The notes beneath the pieces are model-generated. The model ran no database searches. It saw only the letters and a list, made by a program, of their open reading frames with translations, and was not told the DNA's origin. This document shows, in pieces, positions 12,139-20,000 of a stretch of DNA of 20,000 nucleotides. Location: the sequence record SRR20825006_1225. One strand, 5' to 3'. Position numbers and translations under genes: made by a program. The first letter of the stretch is position 1. Every line of letters starts with the position of its first letter.

Positions 12139-12771
12139 TTAAATCTCTCCACGTAGTGATTTAGCAATTACTTCCGCTTTTGAGTTGACATGAAGTTTTT
12201 TATAGATATTTCGGATATGCGCTCGAACCGTATCAATAGAAATATCAAACCTGTCGGCAATCATCTTATAACTCAGCCCGTCAACTAAACCATTAACAAT
12301 ATCTTGTTCCCTAGAAGTTAGCATGCTATCTGGGTTTTTCTTTGGCTTCTGGTCGTTAAAGTGTGTAATTACTTTTCTTGCAATTTGTGGTGACATCGGG
12401 GCACCACCTTTTAAAAGCATTTCAATGGCTTCTTTAATTTCAGGAAGTGAAGTATGCTTCAATAGATAACCAGAAGCGCCTGCTTTTAGCGAATCGAAAA
12501 TTTTGTGCGAGTCGTGATAAATGGTGAGCATGATTATATCTACATCAGGATACTTTTCCTTGATTACTTCCATTCCTTTTATGCCAGACATCCCTGGTAA
12601 TTGAATGTCCATAAGAATAACATCTGGTTGCATATGTTTCTCAAGAAACTCTAGCATTTCCTCCACGCTATCTACTGCTACTGGACATTCAAGCCCATCC
12701 TGCATATCTAAATAACGTTGAATCAGATCTCTGATTTTGACATTATCTTCTACAATTCCAATTACAGCCAT
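12139..12771 (-). CDS. NarL/FixJ (LuxR-HTH) family response regulator
   Basis: REC motifs IVEDN, ILMDIQLPGMSG, MLT, GASGYLLK; HTH LTSREQDIV..GLSYKMIA..ISIDTVRAHIRNIYKKLHV. Confidence 0.95.
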   Translation of the reverse strand: MAVIGIVEDNVKIRDLIQRYLDMQDGLECPVAVDSVEEMLEFLEKHMQPDVILMDIQLPGMSGIKGMEVIKEKYPDVDIIMLTIYHDSHKIFDSLKAGASGYLLKHTSLPEIKEAIEMLLKGGAPMSPQIARKVITHFNDQKPKKNPDSMLTSREQDIVNGLVDGLSYKMIADRFDISIDTVRAHIRNIYKKLHVNSKAEVIAKSLRGEI

Positions 12772-12780
12772 AATAATTAT

Positions 12781-15657
12781 TTAGTTGGCGTTTAACTTGC
12801 CCATTATTGTTATAGTAAAACCATTTTTATTGCTAACATCAACACTTGCACCAATTCGTTCTGCCCGCATTTTCATATTCCTTAGACCATGCCCTGTTTT
12901 CTTAGGGCCCATTCCTGAGCTACCATTGTCGTGGATAGTAAATGTAAAGCTACTACTTTCAGTATGCATGGTTATGCGAACTAAATCTCCGTTAGAGTAT
13001 TTAGATATATTATTAGCCGCTTCCTTAAAGATTAAATACAGATTCTCTTTTAATGGGACCGCTAATTTGTTCTGCATTTTCAGATCTTCAAAATCGTATT
13101 GAACGTTAAAATTCTTGGGCTCTAGCACATTAAGCACATAATCTTGCATTCTATCTGTTAAATCTCCAAGAGTATCATTCCTAGCATCTATAGACCAAAC
13201 GATATCATCTAAGCTCGTTACAATTCTACGGCATTGTGTTCCAATCTGACTCAATGATTTTTTAAACTCTGGATCTGTATCAATGGCTTGAAGAAAATCT
13301 GATTGGAGAGCAATTTCGGTTAAACTAGCGCCCACGTCATCATGAAGATCACTTGCAATTCTAACTCGCATACGTTCTATATCCACCAGCTTTGTTGTTT
13401 TATAATAGCTATAGAACAACCAAATAATACCCACAATAACAGCACCACAAAGAATAAAGAACCACCATTGCAGCCAAAAAGGAGTACTAACGGAAATGGT
13501 TTTCTTTGTAATGATATCACTCCAAGTTCCATTTGTGTTTTTAGCAAGTACACTAAATGTATAATCTCCGCTTGGTAAGGAGGGATATTTTGCAAATCGA
13601 TCGGTTGTCCGTTGCCAAGTGGGGTCAATACCTTCCATCTTGTACTCATACATAATTTGATTCGGAGCTCTGTAATTAATACCCGAGAAATATATTTCTA
13701 CGAAATTCTGTTCGTAAGAAAGATCTAGATGCGTTTTGTTTGTATAGACTCTGCCAGATGCGATTATCTCATTTATTTTCACCTCTGGAGAAACAGGGTC
13801 ATAGTTATATTTTGGAATAAAAAAGTGACTCATACCCTCCACACTACCAAACCATAAATGTTTTTGAGAATCCTCAAAGACAGCTCCTAAATTCATTTCA
13901 TCTGAAATAAGACCTTGTTCTTTAGAAATTATTTGAAAAGCTTGGTCTTTTTCGGTGGGAATTTCACTATAGAATTTCGCGGCGTCAAATCGAGCAATAC
14001 CGCTGTTTGTGCCAATCCAGTAAATGCCATCTTCAGTTTGTTTTATAAAATAACATACTCTATTTGGTAAGCCGTCATCTACCGTTATGCTTTGGAATTT
14101 CTCGCCATCAAACCAGGCAATCCCTCCAAAAGTTGATACCCAAACAGTACCTTTTAAATCTACGATAATCGTCATTATCGCATTATTAGGTAAGCCGTTT
14201 TGGAGGTTGAAGGTTTCAAATTTTCCATTACTGTATCTACTTACACCACCGTACGTAGCTATCCATAAATTCCCTTCCTTATCTTCAACAGCTCCTAAAG
14301 TAGTGTTATCGGCTAGACCGTCTTCAACTAAAAATTGTTGGTAAGATTTTCCATCGTACCGAATTATGCCTTCTTCGTACGTACTTATCCAGAAGTCACC
14401 TGACTTTGCCTCATAAATCTGCCTAATTTTTCTAAACGGGAATTCTGATTCTTTAAAATTTCTGATTTTACCGTTTTCGATGATAGAAAGACCATTCCTC
14501 ATCCCTACCCAAATTCGTTTTTCCGAATCGTATTTAAGTGTATATACTTTGTCGTCTTGTAAACCTTGATCTAAGCTGATATTTTCAAAGGTACCATTTT
14601 TGTATTTGCTAATGCCTCCGCCGTAGGTTCCTATCCAAGTTATTCCGTCATCACTTTCAGTAAAAGAGGTAACTACGTTATTTGCTAGTCCTAAATCTGT
14701 AGTATAGTTTTCAAAGTAATCTCCTAAAAAAAGATTTACACCACCACCAAAAGTTCCAAACCAAAGGTTGCCTTCTCTATCTCTTGTGGCAGAATAGATG
14801 ATACCGTTAGATAAGCCATTTGCAGTAGTAAAATTTTTGAATCTATTTTGGTCAAAAAGGCTAATCCCTCCTTCGGTTCCTAGCCAAAGCCTACCAGACT
14901 CATCATAGCTTAAGGTTTGGACTTTTGAATTTCCAAGACCTTCATTTTCGCCATAAGTGGTAAACTGGTTGTTCTCGAATTTTGTAAGTCCATTTCGAGT
15001 GCCTATCCACAGAATGCCTTTTTCATCAAAAATAATATCTCTAATTCTATCTTCCGGCAAACCGTCTTTAGTTAGGTATGTTCGGATGTTGCCGAAGCTA
15101 AGTTGGGTTAACCCTTCACGAGTTGCAAACCACATATCGCCAGAGTCGCTTTCGATAATTCTTCGAATTCTGTTGTTTTTAAAACCTTGTGTGGTTGAGT
15201 ATTGATATAATTCTTGATCTTTTTGATACAACCAAACTCCATCACCATCGGTACCAAACCACATATCGCCTTTAGAGTCTTCGAAAATGCTAATTATTTC
15301 CATGTTATCCAGTGCCGAAAGCTCTGGTACATAATAAACACTATCGCCCTGAAAGTAGTTTAAGCCAGAAGCGGTTCCAATCCAGAGCCTTTGTTTACTA
15401 TCTTCAAACAAAGCAAAAATTTTACTATTTTGAAGCCCTTGATCCTCAAAATAGCTCTGAAACTCAATTCCGTCAAAGCTATTCAGTCCGTAGCCAGTAC
15501 CCATCCACATGCTACCCTCATGATCTTGAATTATTGAATGAACTACAGACTCACTTAATCCATCCTCAATAGAATAGGTACGAAATGGATAATATTGTGC
15601 GGTTATGTTTGGAGCTATCCAAACAAGGGAGATTAGTAAGAATAGAAATTTCTTCAT
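12781..15657 (-). CDS. Sensor histidine kinase: Reg_prop beta-propeller repeats, Y_Y_Y domain, one TM helix, HisKA_3 and HATPase
   Basis: Many DxxGxxWxGTxxG / DGLxxN repeats; YEYKMEG..W..YPSLPSGDYTFSV; PFWLQWWF TM; H-box RIASDLHDDVGASL; KEAANNISKYS; GHGLRNM. Nine nt from the regulator gene. Confidence 0.93.
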   Translation of the reverse strand: MKKFLFLLISLVWIAPNITAQYYPFRTYSIEDGLSESVVHSIIQDHEGSMWMGTGYGLNSFDGIEFQSYFEDQGLQNSKIFALFEDSKQRLWIGTASGLNYFQGDSVYYVPELSALDNMEIISIFEDSKGDMWFGTDGDGVWLYQKDQELYQYSTTQGFKNNRIRRIIESDSGDMWFATREGLTQLSFGNIRTYLTKDGLPEDRIRDIIFDEKGILWIGTRNGLTKFENNQFTTYGENEGLGNSKVQTLSYDESGRLWLGTEGGISLFDQNRFKNFTTANGLSNGIIYSATRDREGNLWFGTFGGGVNLFLGDYFENYTTDLGLANNVVTSFTESDDGITWIGTYGGGISKYKNGTFENISLDQGLQDDKVYTLKYDSEKRIWVGMRNGLSIIENGKIRNFKESEFPFRKIRQIYEAKSGDFWISTYEEGIIRYDGKSYQQFLVEDGLADNTTLGAVEDKEGNLWIATYGGVSRYSNGKFETFNLQNGLPNNAIMTIIVDLKGTVWVSTFGGIAWFDGEKFQSITVDDGLPNRVCYFIKQTEDGIYWIGTNSGIARFDAAKFYSEIPTEKDQAFQIISKEQGLISDEMNLGAVFEDSQKHLWFGSVEGMSHFFIPKYNYDPVSPEVKINEIIASGRVYTNKTHLDLSYEQNFVEIYFSGINYRAPNQIMYEYKMEGIDPTWQRTTDRFAKYPSLPSGDYTFSVLAKNTNGTWSDIITKKTISVSTPFWLQWWFFILCGAVIVGIIWLFYSYYKTTKLVDIERMRVRIASDLHDDVGASLTEIALQSDFLQAIDTDPEFKKSLSQIGTQCRRIVTSLDDIVWSIDARNDTLGDLTDRMQDYVLNVLEPKNFNVQYDFEDLKMQNKLAVPLKENLYLIFKEAANNISKYSNGDLVRITMHTESSSFTFTIHDNGSSGMGPKKTGHGLRNMKMRAERIGASVDVSNKNGFTITIMGKLNAN

Positions 15658-15859
15658 AACTACTATTGCTGCAAATAATCAATGCTAGTGTACATTTATA
15701 ATGATAAGTTAATTACGGTTAAAACGTTAAAGTATTTTTATCGGCTTAATCAATCTTGCAGTTTTAAAACATGTAATAACTCAAATCGAATATTGTATAA
15801 GAACAGTCGTTTAAATTACTTTGTCTTTCTTTACAATTCTAAAGCATCAGTTTCTATAA

Positions 15860-16387
15860 TTGAAAAAGTCGATTTCCATCTTACTTCTTCTTTCTTTTAT
15901 CACCCCATTTTGGGGAGCTGTGACGATTCTGCAGTTTCAAAAAGCACAAACCCGATTAGAAGTTAAGAAACAAATAAAGGCTGGCTTTTTGCTTGAAGAA
16001 CTTACTCTGCTTAAATTTTCTAAAACGGAAGCCGATGAGCTTTTGCATTGGGAACATGATAAAGAGTTTGAGTTTAATGGCCAGATGTATGACATAGTTG
16101 AACATGGGGAATCGGGCGATTCTCTTTGGTTTTTAAGTTATTGGGATCATCACGAAACCAAAATTAAAAGGAAACTAAATGAACTTATATCTTCGAATGT
16201 AAAACCCATCGTACATAGCAGAGATGCTGTAGCAACTTCGTTTATTCAAATTAAAGCTAATTTTTTTCAGTACACGTATCATTTGTTAAATGCTAATGTG
16301 AGAAAATATCTATCAAAGCCAGAATACATCGCTCAGATTTTTCACACCGATATAGATTCTCCAACCACCCCGCCTCCCCAAGTTTAA
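15860..16387 (+). CDS. Hypothetical membrane-targeted protein ending in PPP; candidate leader/regulatory ORF of the downstream TonB-dependent receptor
   Basis: TTG start, MKK plus hydrophobic segment, core WEHDKEFEFNGQMYDIV..WDHHET, C-terminus DSPTTPPPQV; fills the gap between the kinase and the receptor. Confidence 0.8.
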   Translation: MKKSISILLLLSFITPFWGAVTILQFQKAQTRLEVKKQIKAGFLLEELTLLKFSKTEADELLHWEHDKEFEFNGQMYDIVEHGESGDSLWFLSYWDHHETKIKRKLNELISSNVKPIVHSRDAVATSFIQIKANFFQYTYHLLNANVRKYLSKPEYIAQIFHTDIDSPTTPPPQV

Positions 16388-16464
16388 TAGAGATCACCAC
16401 TTTTAATTAAATGATTAGTGCGAAGCAGAATCTCACTATTTTACTATTAAACGAAAAGATACTT

Positions 16465-18870
16465 ATGAAACACATTTTGTTAATGTGGTTCTTTCTAGGG
16501 CTTTGTGCGGTAAGTAACGCCCAGATTATAACCATTAACGATAAAGTAACTGACCAACCTATTGAGCTAGTTACTATATACAGTGACTCCCCTAGTTTTT
16601 ATGCCATTACAAATGCAAAAGGTGAAGCTGATATTTCGAAATTCAAAAACGTTGAGATTATCTTAATCCGGCGGATAGGCTATCGTTCTATTACAATGAG
16701 CTACGAAGACCTTAATACACGGAATTTTATAATTTCTCTATCTCCTTCAAACATCTCGATGGATAAACTAGTGGTTTCGGCTACACGCTGGCGCCAAACA
16801 AAATCAAATCTTGCTTCAAAAATAACTTCCGTAACACCTCAGCAAGTAGAAGTTCAAAATCCACAAACAGCGGCCGATTTACTGAGCCTTTCTGGAGAGG
16901 TTTATGTACAGAAAAGTCAACTTGGAGGAGGAAGTCCGATGATTAGGGGATTTTCTACCAATCGACTTCTTCTTGTGGTAGATGGAATTCGAATGAATAC
17001 AGCCATTTTCAGGAGTGGTAACCTTCAAAATGTAATTTCTCTAGATCCTTTCGCAATTGAACATACTGAGGTCTTATTCGGTCCCAGTTCCGTAATTTAT
17101 GGAAGCGATGCTCTTGGTGGAGTTATGAGTTTCAACACCCTCACTCCAGGCCTATCGGCTTCTGAGGAACAATTCGTATCAGGTAATGCAGTAGCTCGTT
17201 ATTCATCTGCCAACGATGAAAACACTTATCACTTTGATGTTAGCTTAGGCACAGAAAAATGGGGTTCCATAACCAGCTTCACTAATTTTAATTATGGTGA
17301 TCTTGAGATGGGAAGTCATGGTCCTGAAGAATACCTCCGCCCTGAATTTGTTCAACGAATTGATGGCTCCGATGTGGTGATTGCAAATAAAAATCCACAA
17401 ATACAGCGAACTACAGGTTATTCACAAACAAATTTAATGCAAAAGCTCCGTTTTAAACCCAACGATGATTGGGATTTTAATTATGGCTTTCATTACTCCG
17501 AAACTTCCGATTATGATCGTTATGATCGTTTAATTCGGTATAAAAATGGTTCTCCTAGAAGTGCCGAATGGTACTATGGACCTCAGATTTGGGTAATGAA
17601 TAATTTTTCTATTGCCACAAAAACAGAATCAGCATTTTTTGATGATGCCAAAATTCGGCTAGCTCATCAGTATTTTGAAGAAAGCAGAATAGATCGCGAT
17701 TTTAATGGTACTCAACGTTTTAGTAGAATTGAAAAAGTGAATGCTTATTCCGCTAATCTTGATTTAGTGAAAAAGCTCTCCGATAACCAACAACTTTTCT
17801 ATGGTGTTGAAAGTGTTTTTAATGATGTAAGCTCTTCAGGAACTGACACTGATATAAGTACAGGCGTAACTGTAAAAGGTTCGCCTCGCTATCCAGAATC
17901 GACCTGGGCTTCTTATGCTGCGTACCTAAACTACATGTACGAGATTAATCCAAAGTTAACTTTACAAGCTGGTACTCGGTACAATCAGTTTGTTTTGGAT
18001 GCCGAATTTGAAAACACTTTTTATCCATTCCCATTCAGCGAAGCACATCTAAATAGTGGGGCTCTAACAGGAAGTATAGGTGTTGTATTCAAGCCAGAGA
18101 AATCGATTGCTATAAATACGGTTCTTTCAACGGGTTTCAGATCTCCAAATATTGATGATGTTGGAAAAGTTTTTGACTCAGAGCCAGGCTCCGTTGTTAT
18201 ACCAAATCCAGATCTAAAATCTGAATATGCCTATAACGCAGAATTAGGTGTGAATAAAGTCTTTAATGATGAACTTCAAATAGATGTAACCGGCTATTAT
18301 ACGCTCTTAGAAGATGCTTTAGTCCGAAGAGATTATACCTTAAACGGACAGAGTCAAATTATGTACGATGGCCAATTAAGTCAGGTTCAAGCTGTACAGA
18401 ATGCAGCAAAAGCTACCATTTTTGGAGTTCAAATTGCGGCCGAATTATCTTTACCTGCTGGCTTTGATGCGTCTTCTCAGTTCAATATTCAAAAGGGTGA
18501 AGAGGAATTAGATAATGGCGATAAAAGTCCTTCTCGACATGCTGCGCCGTGGTTTGGGACTACCCATCTTAAATACAGTGCTAATCATTTGAAACTAGAT
18601 TTATATGCTATTTATAGCATGAAAGTAAGCTATAAGAATCTCCCCGATGAAGAAAAAGGAAAAGATTATATGTACGCCATTGACGCTAATGGAAATCCAT
18701 ATTCTCCAGCATGGTACACGCTAAATCTGAAAAGCATTTACCAAGTTACCAAGGTGTTCTCTTTTTCTTCGGGAATTGAAAACATCACAGACCAGCGCTA
18801 CCGACCGTATAGTTCAGGTATTGTTGCCCCTGGTAGAAATTTGATATTTGCTGTTAAAGCGGATTTCTAA
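16465..18870 (+). CDS. TonB-dependent receptor (N-terminal CarboxypepD_reg-like domain, plug, barrel)
   Basis: ATG 16465 gives a clean signal peptide MKHILLMWFFLGLCAVSNA-Q; LVVSATRW; plug GGGSPMIRGF..LLVVDGIRMN..GPSSVIYGSDALGGV; GFRSPN, NPDLKSE, GIENITDQRY..PGRN, terminal F. Confidence 0.94.
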   Translation: MKHILLMWFFLGLCAVSNAQIITINDKVTDQPIELVTIYSDSPSFYAITNAKGEADISKFKNVEIILIRRIGYRSITMSYEDLNTRNFIISLSPSNISMDKLVVSATRWRQTKSNLASKITSVTPQQVEVQNPQTAADLLSLSGEVYVQKSQLGGGSPMIRGFSTNRLLLVVDGIRMNTAIFRSGNLQNVISLDPFAIEHTEVLFGPSSVIYGSDALGGVMSFNTLTPGLSASEEQFVSGNAVARYSSANDENTYHFDVSLGTEKWGSITSFTNFNYGDLEMGSHGPEEYLRPEFVQRIDGSDVVIANKNPQIQRTTGYSQTNLMQKLRFKPNDDWDFNYGFHYSETSDYDRYDRLIRYKNGSPRSAEWYYGPQIWVMNNFSIATKTESAFFDDAKIRLAHQYFEESRIDRDFNGTQRFSRIEKVNAYSANLDLVKKLSDNQQLFYGVESVFNDVSSSGTDTDISTGVTVKGSPRYPESTWASYAAYLNYMYEINPKLTLQAGTRYNQFVLDAEFENTFYPFPFSEAHLNSGALTGSIGVVFKPEKSIAINTVLSTGFRSPNIDDVGKVFDSEPGSVVIPNPDLKSEYAYNAELGVNKVFNDELQIDVTGYYTLLEDALVRRDYTLNGQSQIMYDGQLSQVQAVQNAAKATIFGVQIAAELSLPAGFDASSQFNIQKGEEELDNGDKSPSRHAAPWFGTTHLKYSANHLKLDLYAIYSMKVSYKNLPDEEKGKDYMYAIDANGNPYSPAWYTLNLKSIYQVTKVFSFSSGIENITDQRYRPYSSGIVAPGRNLIFAVKADF

Positions 18871-18960: not shown

Positions 18961-19551
18961 TCACAGTTTTTTGGATATTACTAATGCATCTAAACTTGAG
19001 GTATCAAAAGCTTTAACCTCTTTGTAAGAATCTAACCTATAGAGCAAAGTATCATTCCTCTCAATATTCAAAATTCCTTCTAAGGATGCATCCACATGAA
19101 ACATATTGTATACTATTAATACCTGAGGCACGTAACCTTCCAAATTAAATTCACTCCAAATGTAGTACTGAGATCCCAAGTTATACCAACCTCCACCAGC
19201 TATAACTTCATCAAAGTAACCTGACTTTGTTAAAAAATCATACCCAACTTTTGAATCGATATCTGTTGATATTCCAGTAGAGAAGAAACCAATGCCTTTG
19301 GCTTTGGCAAAACTTCTCACTCTCATTTTCAAACTTTTCAGTTCGTTATGAAGTGAATCATTACAATAAGAACACCCTTCTGATCCAATATAAACCAACT
19401 GTAAGTACTCGCCACCTTTAAAGTCTTTAATCCCGCTTTCCGAAGCTCTCTCTGTTTTAGCATTATAAAATTTGGGTAAAATATAAACCCCGATTATTAC
19501 CCCTATAAATACTATAATTATTAATATCCTATTGAATATTTTATCGCTCAT
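18961..19551 (-). CDS. Membrane-anchored hypothetical protein with CxxC, probable thioredoxin-like fold
   Basis: N-terminal TM (ILIIIVFIGVIIGVYIL); strand LQLVYIG then CSYC then helix; later YVPQVLIV at the expected cis-Pro position. Confidence 0.7.
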   Translation of the reverse strand: MSDKIFNRILIIIVFIGVIIGVYILPKFYNAKTERASESGIKDFKGGEYLQLVYIGSEGCSYCNDSLHNELKSLKMRVRSFAKAKGIGFFSTGISTDIDSKVGYDFLTKSGYFDEVIAGGGWYNLGSQYYIWSEFNLEGYVPQVLIVYNMFHVDASLEGILNIERNDTLLYRLDSYKEVKAFDTSSLDALVISKKL

Positions 19552-20000
19552 AATTTTTTAATTTATAGATATTGAAAAAAATTTTCCCGTTTTTCTGTCT
19601 AATTAAATGCCTGCTTGTTACCCAAATGTTTTCGCTTTCAACAAAACTTTGACCGAGGTAATGGGATTTTCCTCTTGATGTATTGATTAAATAGAAGTCT
19701 TGTGATTCATCCCATTTCAACCCCAAATCAGTTACTCTTCTGTTACCGTAATGTCGAATCGTAACCATCAATGTATTGTCGGTAACTTTAGTCACATCCT
19801 GTATTAAACTCCAATCAGAAAAGTTTACAAATAGCTCTTGAGTTGAAGGAACATATCTTCTCTTTGCGATATTGAATCCCGAAAAATTGTATTTCTTAGT
19901 CAACGTTCCATTTTCAAAATGATATAAATAGGGAATCAAATCGAAGTATTGTATTAGGTGTTGATCAACTTCATTGGAGTACCTTATTTTTCCCGATGAA
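19541..20000 (-). CDS. C-terminal part of a hypothetical protein (possibly beta-propeller), truncated by the right edge
   Basis: The frame of ORF 19541..19939 stays open to the window end (SSGKIRYSNEVDQHLIQYFDLIPYLY...), so the TTG start at 19939 is an edge artefact. Short beta-strand-like pattern, ends FNIYKLKNYER; overlaps the next gene by 11 nt. Confidence 0.65.
   Translation of the reverse strand, partial: SSGKIRYSNEVDQHLIQYFDLIPYLYHFENGTLTKKYNFSGFNIAKRRYVPSTQELFVNFSDWSLIQDVTKVTDNTLMVTIRHYGNRRVTDLGLKWDESQDFYLINTSRGKSHYLGQSFVESENIWVTSRHLIRQKNGKIFFNIYKLKNYER

Follow-up and report, generated by a model that had tools for sequence, protein, structure and literature searches.

The spacer ahead of a TonB-dependent receptor gene in a 20,000-nucleotide (nt) stretch of DNA from sequence record SRR20825006_1225 (hereafter the window, with positions counted from its first letter) harbors a 9-bp stem, P1, which joins the end of the preceding gene to the initiation region of the receptor gene, and which the comparison of related loci described below marks as almost certainly a real, conserved RNA helix. 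The preceding gene encodes a 175-residue protein of an unnamed family that ends in three prolines (PPP) followed by Gln and Val, and its stop codon lies within the 5' arm of P1. We propose that receptor translation is under a ribosome-dependent control in which P1 serves as the switch helix, a reading to which we assign a probability of roughly 0.55. The nascent-chain logic behind such a control is known from CutF and CruR; this protein family and the stop-to-start helix in Bacteroidota appear to be new.

The two arms of P1 form a perfect inverted repeat, seen in the sequence and recovered by a repeat finder, in which GTTTAATAG (16382-16390, plus strand) is complementary to CTATTAAAC (16444-16452, plus strand) across 53 intervening nt; the same arms are paired in predicted folds. 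The TAA stop codon of the upstream gene occupies positions 16385-16387 within the 5' arm, which begins at the fourth nt past the last proline codon (16376-16378), and the 3' arm ends 12 nt short of the receptor ATG at 16465, thereby covering positions -21 to -13 relative to it. A preliminary description of this stretch had reported the 9-nt complementarity and both distances, and the coordinates bear it out exactly. Between the arms, TAGTG (16416-16420) and CACTA (16434-16438) form, together with two inner pairs, a hairpin, P2 (16416-16438, plus strand), in the minimum free energy (MFE) structure of the element. The A-rich linker from P1 to the start codon (16453-16464, plus strand) is predicted to be unpaired, with a mean unpaired probability of 0.92 over 16453-16480 when the element alone is folded, and no Shine-Dalgarno-like GGAGG is found within it. 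The minor pairings of the preliminary description, i.e., GAGAT with ATCTC, TAGTG with CACTA and a TGC-GAA-GCA hairpin, are likewise all present where it had placed them. The second of these is conserved as P2, which is predicted with a probability of 0.72-0.77 in contexts up to 16300-16520 and is the one helix recovered when RNAalifold derives a consensus from the window and its three closest relatives. The GAGAT/ATCTC pairing fared less well, with a probability of 0.10-0.16 in the window and its loss in the closest relatives (loci L002 and L003).

Judged on the sequence of the window alone, the stem is indistinguishable from chance. The region 16350-16490, which the preliminary description had singled out for folding, folds no better than its shuffled versions (MFE of -16.5 kcal/mol, z = -0.44, with 55 of 200 dinucleotide shuffles as good), and the stem is missing from this MFE structure. 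Ungapped helices of at least 9 bp, with G-U pairs allowed, turn up in 47 of 456 shuffled controls. The element folded by itself (16376-16456) reaches -10.6 kcal/mol with z = -2.54.

The evidence for P1 comes from loci elsewhere. The PPP-tailed family was found in at least 527 tblastn-confirmed loci of a collection of species-representative genomes, of which 80 were fetched, and 88 fetched loci were analyzed in all. Restricting the set to loci with receptor alignments of at least 40% identity that begin no later than residue 3 gave 72 loci, or 69 without three duplicates, and 57 of these also had a spacer of 40-140 nt and an ATG where the aligned receptor begins; the 12 loci dropped at this step comprise five with longer spacers, two with shorter spacers and five without an ATG at the aligned position. 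An alignment-wide approach was abandoned, as MAFFT alignments of 57 sequences (A2) and 16 sequences (A3) fail to register the 3' arms and RNAalifold predicts 0 pairs on A3, and we therefore used alignment-free duplex statistics and two alignable subgroups. In the duplex test, the segment from stop-9 to stop+18 was paired with that from ATG-40 to ATG-5, using cross-locus pairs, shifted 5' windows and 200 shuffles as controls. The native duplexes of the 57 loci have a mean energy of -9.86 kcal/mol against -6.39 kcal/mol for cross-locus pairs, and 5' windows displaced into the coding sequence by 30, 60 or 90 nt yield -5.96, -5.46 and -5.77 kcal/mol, respectively; p <= 0.05 against shuffles is reached in 26 of the 57 loci. 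When the loci are grouped into 21 single-linkage clusters (at least 55% protein identity), the native mean is -9.75 kcal/mol against -5.75 kcal/mol across clusters, the native pairing is better than the cross-cluster pairing in 18 clusters (Wilcoxon p = 8.4e-5) and the native partner ranks in the top 10% for 14. MFE structures of the region from stop-12 to ATG+6 contain at least five pairs linking the stop region to -35 to -8 in 49 loci, where 18.6 are expected, and ungapped helices of at least 10 bp are present in 19 of 57 native pairs, the counts for cross-locus pairs and for shuffles being 36 of 451 and 20 of 456. The preliminary description had named absence of the pairing from orthologs as the outcome that would count against it; the stem proves to be conserved and covarying in orthologous and distant loci. 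By this comparison across loci, a chance origin of the stem is excluded. A stem that fails single-sequence fold tests can nonetheless be a conserved element.

The geometry of the helix is also retained. The stop-codon region finds its partner at about -13 to -27 upstream of the receptor ATG in the 57 loci, and in 39 of them (31 of 37 for helices of at least 8 bp) the best helix has a 5' arm that overlaps the stop codon. In other loci with helices of at least 8 bp, the 3' arm ends between -6 and -32, mostly at -10 to -21, and for such helices in loci with standard tails the helix starts 1-12 nt past the last proline codon in 27 of 29 cases. The arm sequences vary among lineages with complementarity kept, as in the Aequorivita-type loci, where a GTTAAC core is surrounded by varying flanks, and in the congener L004, which builds the same link (6 bp) from different nucleotides. 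The other genus-level loci have linking helices of 7 bp (L002), 8 bp (L003), 8 bp (L005) and 14 bp (L006), and helices of 13-14 bp are seen in L017, L011 (with G-U pairs), L025 and L006. A minimal form in L012 consists only of the P1 hairpin, 11 bp long and with the stop codon in the 5' arm, and this identifies P1 as the core of the element with P2 and a third helix, P3, as accessories. Among unusual tails, the stop codon follows directly after PPP in L015 and L074 with the 5' arm still 8-10 nt further downstream, and the frame continues through the 5' arm in L077 and L084.

Covariation in the two alignable subgroups points in the same direction. In an alignment of 19 Aequorivita-type sequences (A4; P1, P2 and P3), 91.4% of cells are paired against 84.0 +/- 1.0% upon shuffling, a value reached by 0 of 500 shuffles, slid controls are 27-52% paired, and seven of 16 pairs have changed on both sides. 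In an alignment of eight diverse one-hairpin sequences (A7; P1 of 10 bp and P2 of 9 bp), the corresponding values are 87.8% against 80.3 +/- 1.8%, again reached by 0 of 500, with slid controls at 36-50% and seven of 19 pairs changed on both sides; here P1 is 91% paired, and one of its pairs occurs as CG in three sequences, UA in three, AU in one and UG in one. P1, P2 and P3 all commonly contain G-U pairs, each of which would become an A-C mismatch if the opposite strand were folded. The element as a whole folds better in the sense orientation (mean z of -3.03 against -1.87 for antisense), and 41 of the 57 loci have their lower MFE in that orientation (p = 3e-4). The end of the upstream gene carries a further signal: where the gene ends in Ser, that codon is AGT in 28 of 35 cases, as compared with 129 of 1010 (13%) other Ser codons of the same open reading frames (ORFs), and among 85 loci, 62 use TAA as the stop and 32 have GTTAA across it. 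By this codon usage the last codon is constrained at the nucleotide level. Rfam 15 gave no credible match in 15500-16700 of the window (E <= 1) and none over the element in 18 loci at gathering thresholds. A covariance model built from the Aequorivita-type group (R1) retrieved 28 matches at E <= 1, two of them antisense, from its own lineage and a few others and missed the window, and no claim made here rests on it.

The upstream gene (15860-16387, plus strand, with a TTG start) had been taken for a leader ORF. The 19 homologs of its product in the protein collection, their alignment and an AlphaFold2 model indicate instead the gene of a conserved 175-residue protein with a predicted folded domain. 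The family loci belong mainly to Bacteroidota (Flavobacteriales, Saprospiraceae, Cytophagales-type and Bacteroidales), with Aequorivita, Fulvivirga marina, Reichenbachiella faecimaris, Marixanthomonas spongiae and Polaribacter porphyrae among the named carriers of the cassette, the gene is found in six of 23 genomes of the window's genus, and the stop-to-stop frames of the family in other loci measure 172-242 residues. No Pfam or NCBIfam family was found for the window protein, nor any DUF2946-type match at E <= 0.01. The AlphaFold2 model, computed from the 19-sequence alignment with a mean predicted local distance difference test (pLDDT) score of 71.1, contains a helix (residues 2-41), strands (48-95) and further helices, while residues 138-168 have pLDDT below 50; the protein is thus modelled as a hydrophobic N-terminal helix, a small beta/alpha domain, a disordered tail and the terminal PPP-Q-V. 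The hydrophobic segment modelled as the long helix is kept across the family and followed by a Lys/Arg-rich flank. Foldseek found no PDB match at E <= 0.001 for the predicted fold, and the Atlas neighbors of the protein are unnamed Bacteroidota clusters only, the nearest named cluster being DUF2946/CzcI at 0.84, which is a lead only. In an alignment of 84 sequences, W64, H66, E69, F70, E71, G74, M76, Y77, D78, D87, D96, E99 and T100 are invariant or nearly so. Possible ligand residues are H66 (82/84), E69 (84/84), E71 (83/84), M76, D78 and D96 (84/84), E99 (83/84) and C93 (72/84), the last of which is a Ser in the window protein, which is devoid of Cys.

The three proline codons (P171-P173; 16370-16378, plus strand) stand two codons before the stop and form a candidate ribosome pause site. 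The preliminary description had drawn attention to PPP directly upstream of the stem, and the motif turns out to be near-invariant through the family, being present in 19 of 19 family sequences, with P172 conserved in 84/84, P173 in 83/84 and P171 in 76/84 of the larger alignment; two to four residues separate the last PP from the stop in 75 of the 88 loci. Tails of the type PP.PP[KR] without a triple proline also occur, for example in L024, L043 and L057. As a separate observation, the PPP tail (PPVPPPRLG-stop) and the P1 5' arm of L025 (L025:1936-2073) are out of frame with the rest of the family ORF, which suggests a frameshift or an assembly error in that metagenome-assembled genome (MAG).

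The downstream gene (16465-18870, plus strand) encodes an 801-residue TonB-dependent receptor with a signal peptide and CarboxypepD_reg-like, plug and barrel domains (Pfam PF13715, PF07715 and PF00593), whose closest NCBIfam models, TIGR01786 and TIGR01785, are both under cut-off. A receptor homolog follows the PPP gene in 85 of the 88 fetched loci, three duplicates included, and the orthologs in this position elsewhere are 46-99% identical; L007, L067 and L075 have the PPP gene without a receptor behind it. There is no conserved neighbor besides the receptor, the best other cluster being present in 11 loci, and no regulator gene is conserved beside the pair. Receptor homologs are found in 21 of 23 genomes of the genus (53-99% identity), and among 16 regions upstream of the 53-59% identical copies none encodes a member of the PPP family (hidden Markov model, E <= 10); the receptor can occur without the PPP gene. 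Most of the regions L090-L102, which lie upstream of 53-54% identical receptor copies in other genomes of the genus, share a highly conserved stretch of about 100 nt that may be a promoter or leader of their own. The receptor start at 16465 is supported by the signal peptide and by all orthologs. An in-frame ATG at 16411, 54 nt before this start and inside the structured spacer, would add 18 residues (16411-16464); it is kept only in the closest relatives L002 and L003, and L004 has no ATG there and an intervening stop. Gene-60-type bypassing or frameshifting at CCC-C was considered and rejected, as the receptor has its own signal peptide and start and a +1 shift in the window would end after eight codons. 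Two MAGs labelled Aminicenantes (L054 and L079) carry the cassette with GC-rich spacers and a strong AAGGAGG ahead of the receptor start, and may represent a Shine-Dalgarno-using version of the same arrangement.

In the mechanism that we propose, the 9-bp stem is the closing helix of a conserved structured RNA filling the 77-nt spacer of a presumed two-gene operon. Positions -21 to -13 of the receptor gene are paired in it with the end of the first gene, from its final sense codon through the stop to 3 nt beyond, and the inner hairpin P2 keeps both arms of P1 together. A ribosome slowed at the near-invariant PPP would arrive at the foot of P1 and terminate at the stop codon inside the 5' arm; P1 would then be unable to form, and the distal part of an initiation region that lacks a Shine-Dalgarno sequence would be exposed. 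When no such ribosome is present, P1 would re-form and initiation would be damped. By analogy with CutF-cutO and SecM-secA, ligand sensing by the upstream protein's conserved domain may determine how long the ribosome dwells, and we hold only tentatively that the protein is a ligand sensor acting via PPP arrest. PPP pausing, the sign and magnitude of the influence on receptor translation, the co-transcription of the two genes and any ligand are parts of this scheme that we infer.

The helicase of a ribosome lies about 11 nt, and its protection reaches about 15 nt, 3' of the first P-site nucleotide. Given these dimensions, a ribosome held at PPP would touch only the first few pairs of P1, and full melting would take place at termination, with the ribosome at the stop codon. 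The preliminary description had the ribosome paused at PPP cover the 5' arm, which remains apt for those first pairs and has to be revised for the complete opening. It had also supposed that opening the stem frees the A-rich initiation region, and in this respect it needs correction: the final 12 nt ahead of the ATG stay unpaired whether or not the stem forms, sequestration is confined to -21 to -13, and forcing 16360-16392 open hardly alters the predicted accessibility of the window's initiation region. When a ribosome is modelled at the stop codon, the energy needed to open -25 to +15 drops by a mean of 1.69 kcal/mol over the 57 loci, compared with 0.04 kcal/mol under a control footprint (p = 7.5e-5). 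Initiation in F. johnsoniae is described as being tuned by pairing within -20 to +20 and by adenines at -3, -6, -12 and -13, with bS1 near -12 to -15, and a helix over -13 to -27 could therefore plausibly matter. No plus-strand sigma-70-like or terminator-like site was found in the window's spacer, and the promoter-like motif TAnnTTTG is not enriched in the spacers (3 of 57 against 3.4 expected); both negatives are no more than weak evidence against a promoter inside the spacer.

Several observations weigh against this reading of P1 as a switch helix. The window's stem is AT-rich, only 9 bp long and weak, a caveat of the preliminary description that is upheld by an arm-to-arm duplex of -9.1 kcal/mol with z = -1.82 and p = 0.06 against 200 shuffles, and the predicted probability of P1 falls as flanking sequence is added, from 0.91 (16373-16470) to 0.30 (16350-16490) and 0.01 (16200-16600). 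The loci are related and many are MAGs, so that the statistics overstate independence; three of the 21 clusters show no gain over cross-locus pairs, and eight of the 57 loci have no linking helix in their MFE structure. P1 taken alone has no strand bias (-9.86 kcal/mol sense, -9.89 kcal/mol antisense). In 12 loci with unusual tails, the 5' arm does not follow PPP clearly more closely than it follows the stop codon, its position having a standard deviation of 7.8 nt relative to PPP and 10.5 nt relative to the stop. The modelled ribosome at the stop codon barely affects the proximal region from -12 to +15 (mean drop of 0.43 kcal/mol, median 0.06, p = 0.07), from which it follows that P1 never hides the start codon, and in the window it changes the opening energy of -25 to +15 from 7.51 to 7.44 kcal/mol, i.e., by almost nothing. 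The conserved PP.PPP could be a protein-level motif without a pausing role, and the co-transcription of the two genes is presumed.

Some of these observations would fit other roles for the spacer. It might act as a CruR-type polarity or mRNA processing/stability element, in which the structured spacer and a held ribosome control Rho-dependent termination or nuclease access, and P1 shapes the fate of the mRNA without gating initiation. CruR, itself located ahead of a TonB-dependent transporter, is reported to use proline-motif arrest and Rho termination (PMC9426467); the freedom of the start codon and the last 12 nt from P1, the negligible modelled effect on the proximal initiation region and the stability and covariation of P2 and P3, as expected of nuclease barriers, would all agree with such a role. 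We nevertheless consider it unlikely, given that the minimal form in L012 has P1 only, that the conserved feature is a link from the stop to -13 to -27, needless for a simple barrier hairpin, and that the window's spacer has no recognizable terminator-like site. Alternatively, coupling might be passive, with P1, P2 and P3 compacting a spacer of 60-100 nt and handing ribosomes from stop to start, and PPP serving as a protein-level motif with no regulatory pausing. The stop codon within the 5' arm in 39 of 57 best helices, the 12-20 nt next to the start that are always free and the tails without triple proline, which fit a peptide-ligand motif, speak for this, yet a ribosome at the stop would, from its known dimensions, already have melted P1, and the compaction would be lost at the moment of hand-over; moreover, the 5' arm keeps its distance from PPP in L015 and L074, where the stop comes directly after the prolines. 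Passive coupling seems to us rather improbable.

The lack of strand bias in the P1 duplex, together with the palindromic GTTAAC core at both arms in Aequorivita-type loci, raises the question of whether the inverted repeat works in DNA, as an operator or promoter-associated site for a regulator. Such a role is highly improbable in view of the better sense-strand folding of the whole element, the frequent G-U pairs in all three helices and arm sequences that differ by lineage with complementarity retained, and neither an enriched promoter motif nor a regulator gene conserved beside the pair was found. It could also be argued that the window's own 9-bp match is a chance product of AT-rich sequence and that a working helix exists only in other lineages: the window-only statistics are not significant, and the window's 5' arm finds an equally good partner in nine of 53 3' regions taken from other loci. 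The link is, however, present in all five other genus-level loci (L002-L006), and the element-only z-score and the P1 probability of 0.91 in its immediate context stand against chance, which makes this explanation very unlikely.

The layout resembles those of CutF/CruR and of SecM-type regulators, while the protein itself is not a detectable DUF2946 member by sequence. In Rhodobacter capsulatus, a stall at the C-terminal PPP of CutF is described as melting a stem-loop masking the next gene's ribosome-binding site, with the involvement of EF-P (PMC9973294; bioRxiv 10.1101/2025.02.05.636593), and this published system operates in the way that the preliminary description had envisaged for the present locus. 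CutF-like genes are reported to be common in Bacteroidota, with TonB-like genes as their second commonest downstream neighbor (PMC9973294). As in the CutF-cutO pair, the upstream protein here is likely exported or membrane-targeted and has a C-terminal PPP near the stop, with a PP within the last 15 residues as in the CutF-like filter of PMC9973294 (the window protein ends in PPPQV); the intergenic region is short (77 nt here, and below 100 nt in most CutF-like cases, PMC9973294), and a stalled ribosome would open an mRNA stem for translation of the next gene. Unlike CutF, none of the 19 family members matches DUF2946, CzcI, any PP-tail family or another Pfam or NCBIfam model at E <= 10, and a six-frame search with PF11162 exceeded the cut-off in 0 of 41 related genomes, with no match at the PPP gene. 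The window protein, at 175 residues, is also longer than the under-150-residue limit of the CutF-like filter given in PMC9973294, and its family has a distinct conserved domain; a Cys motif is lacking from the window's own copy. The initiation region offers no Shine-Dalgarno sequence that could be shielded, the part of it covered by P1 is limited to -21 to -13, the stop codon lies inside the helix, and the spacer has one or two additional hairpins.

CruR of Bordetella pertussis offers the closest parallel in the type of target, since it acts on a downstream TonB-dependent transporter through arrest at a C-terminal proline motif and Rho-dependent termination between the genes (PMC9426467). The order of an upstream ORF with a C-terminal proline motif followed by such a transporter is shared with CruR-bfrG(crtA) (PMC9426467, PMC12914433, PMC9973294), whose regulation is described as post-transcriptional and in cis. 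As reported, CruR is a DUF2946 protein with CXXC and RAPP motifs, a 162-nt intergenic region and Rho-dependent termination, whereas the present system has a PPP motif, another protein family and a conserved stop-to-start helix. SecM, the archetype of nascent-chain regulators (PMC10987492), and likewise MifM and VemP, are proteins of about 100-170 residues with an N-terminal targeting segment, arrest a few codons before the stop and have a stalled ribosome open a stem-loop for the downstream gene, as described in PMC10987492. Their downstream genes encode Sec/YidC export machinery, which releases the arrest, and their stem hides a Shine-Dalgarno sequence, whereas here the downstream gene encodes an outer-membrane receptor and the arrest is presumed. 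In the mgtC-mgtB intergenic region of Salmonella, translation of mgtQ, an ORF overlapping alternative stem-loops, is reported to promote translation of the downstream transporter (PMC8092293); mgtQ is a very small ORF located within the spacer and is described as depending on acidic residues and not on its Pro codon (PMC8092293), whereas the element translated in the window is formed by the 3' terminal part of a full-length conserved gene. Classical leader-peptide attenuation, which calls for a functionless short leader ORF and for alternative terminator/antiterminator hairpins, does not fit the conserved 175-residue protein with its predicted folded domain, nor the lack of a detectable terminator-like site in the spacer. 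The literature searched yielded no description of the PPP family or of a stop-to-start helix in Bacteroidota, the search not extending to the supplementary CutF-like lists of the CutF paper, which may include short annotated forms of the family.

A bolder extension of the switch-helix reading, which we offer as speculative and would not ourselves bet on, is that this widespread Bacteroidota/Balneolota family, unrelated by sequence to DUF2946, represents an independently evolved CutF-like switch. The W-H-EFE-MYD-D-ET domain, when engaged, would keep the PPP arrest in place, open the helix and license Shine-Dalgarno-independent initiation at the receptor gene, and no structured RNA switch helix would have been described before P1 as controlling initiation in this lineage, which lacks Shine-Dalgarno sequences.

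Further features were noted in the window and in the loci. The sole plus-strand terminator-like hairpin of 15500-16700 (16106-16125), with an 8-pair stem and a T-rich tail, lies inside the PPP-protein gene. The minus strand encodes, at 12139-15657 and divergently from the cassette, a sensor histidine kinase of the Y_Y_Y/Reg_prop type together with a LuxR-type response regulator, a pairing that is not conserved elsewhere, and two ORFs, also on the minus strand, at 18961-19551 (196 residues) and 19541-19999 (at least 152 residues, continuing beyond the window edge) belong to no Pfam family. In L035, a DUF805b RNA motif (Rfam RF02914; L035:2529-2561; 37 bits against a cut-off of 35.6), which was the single Rfam hit to pass its gathering threshold, is located about 940 nt upstream of the family gene and is unrelated to the element.

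If the proposed mechanism is true, the principle of CutF, CruR and SecM, whereby the ribosome's dwell time is set by the very protein it is making and an mRNA helix is thus opened for the next gene, would extend to a family unrecognized by current models. It would also reach bacteria that do not use Shine-Dalgarno pairing and whose control of initiation is poorly understood, and P1 would be a concrete RNA target with natural compensatory variants in dozens of lineages. The two-gene cassette, with at least 527 genomic instances, would then be useful for studying the post-transcriptional tuning of uptake through an outer-membrane receptor.

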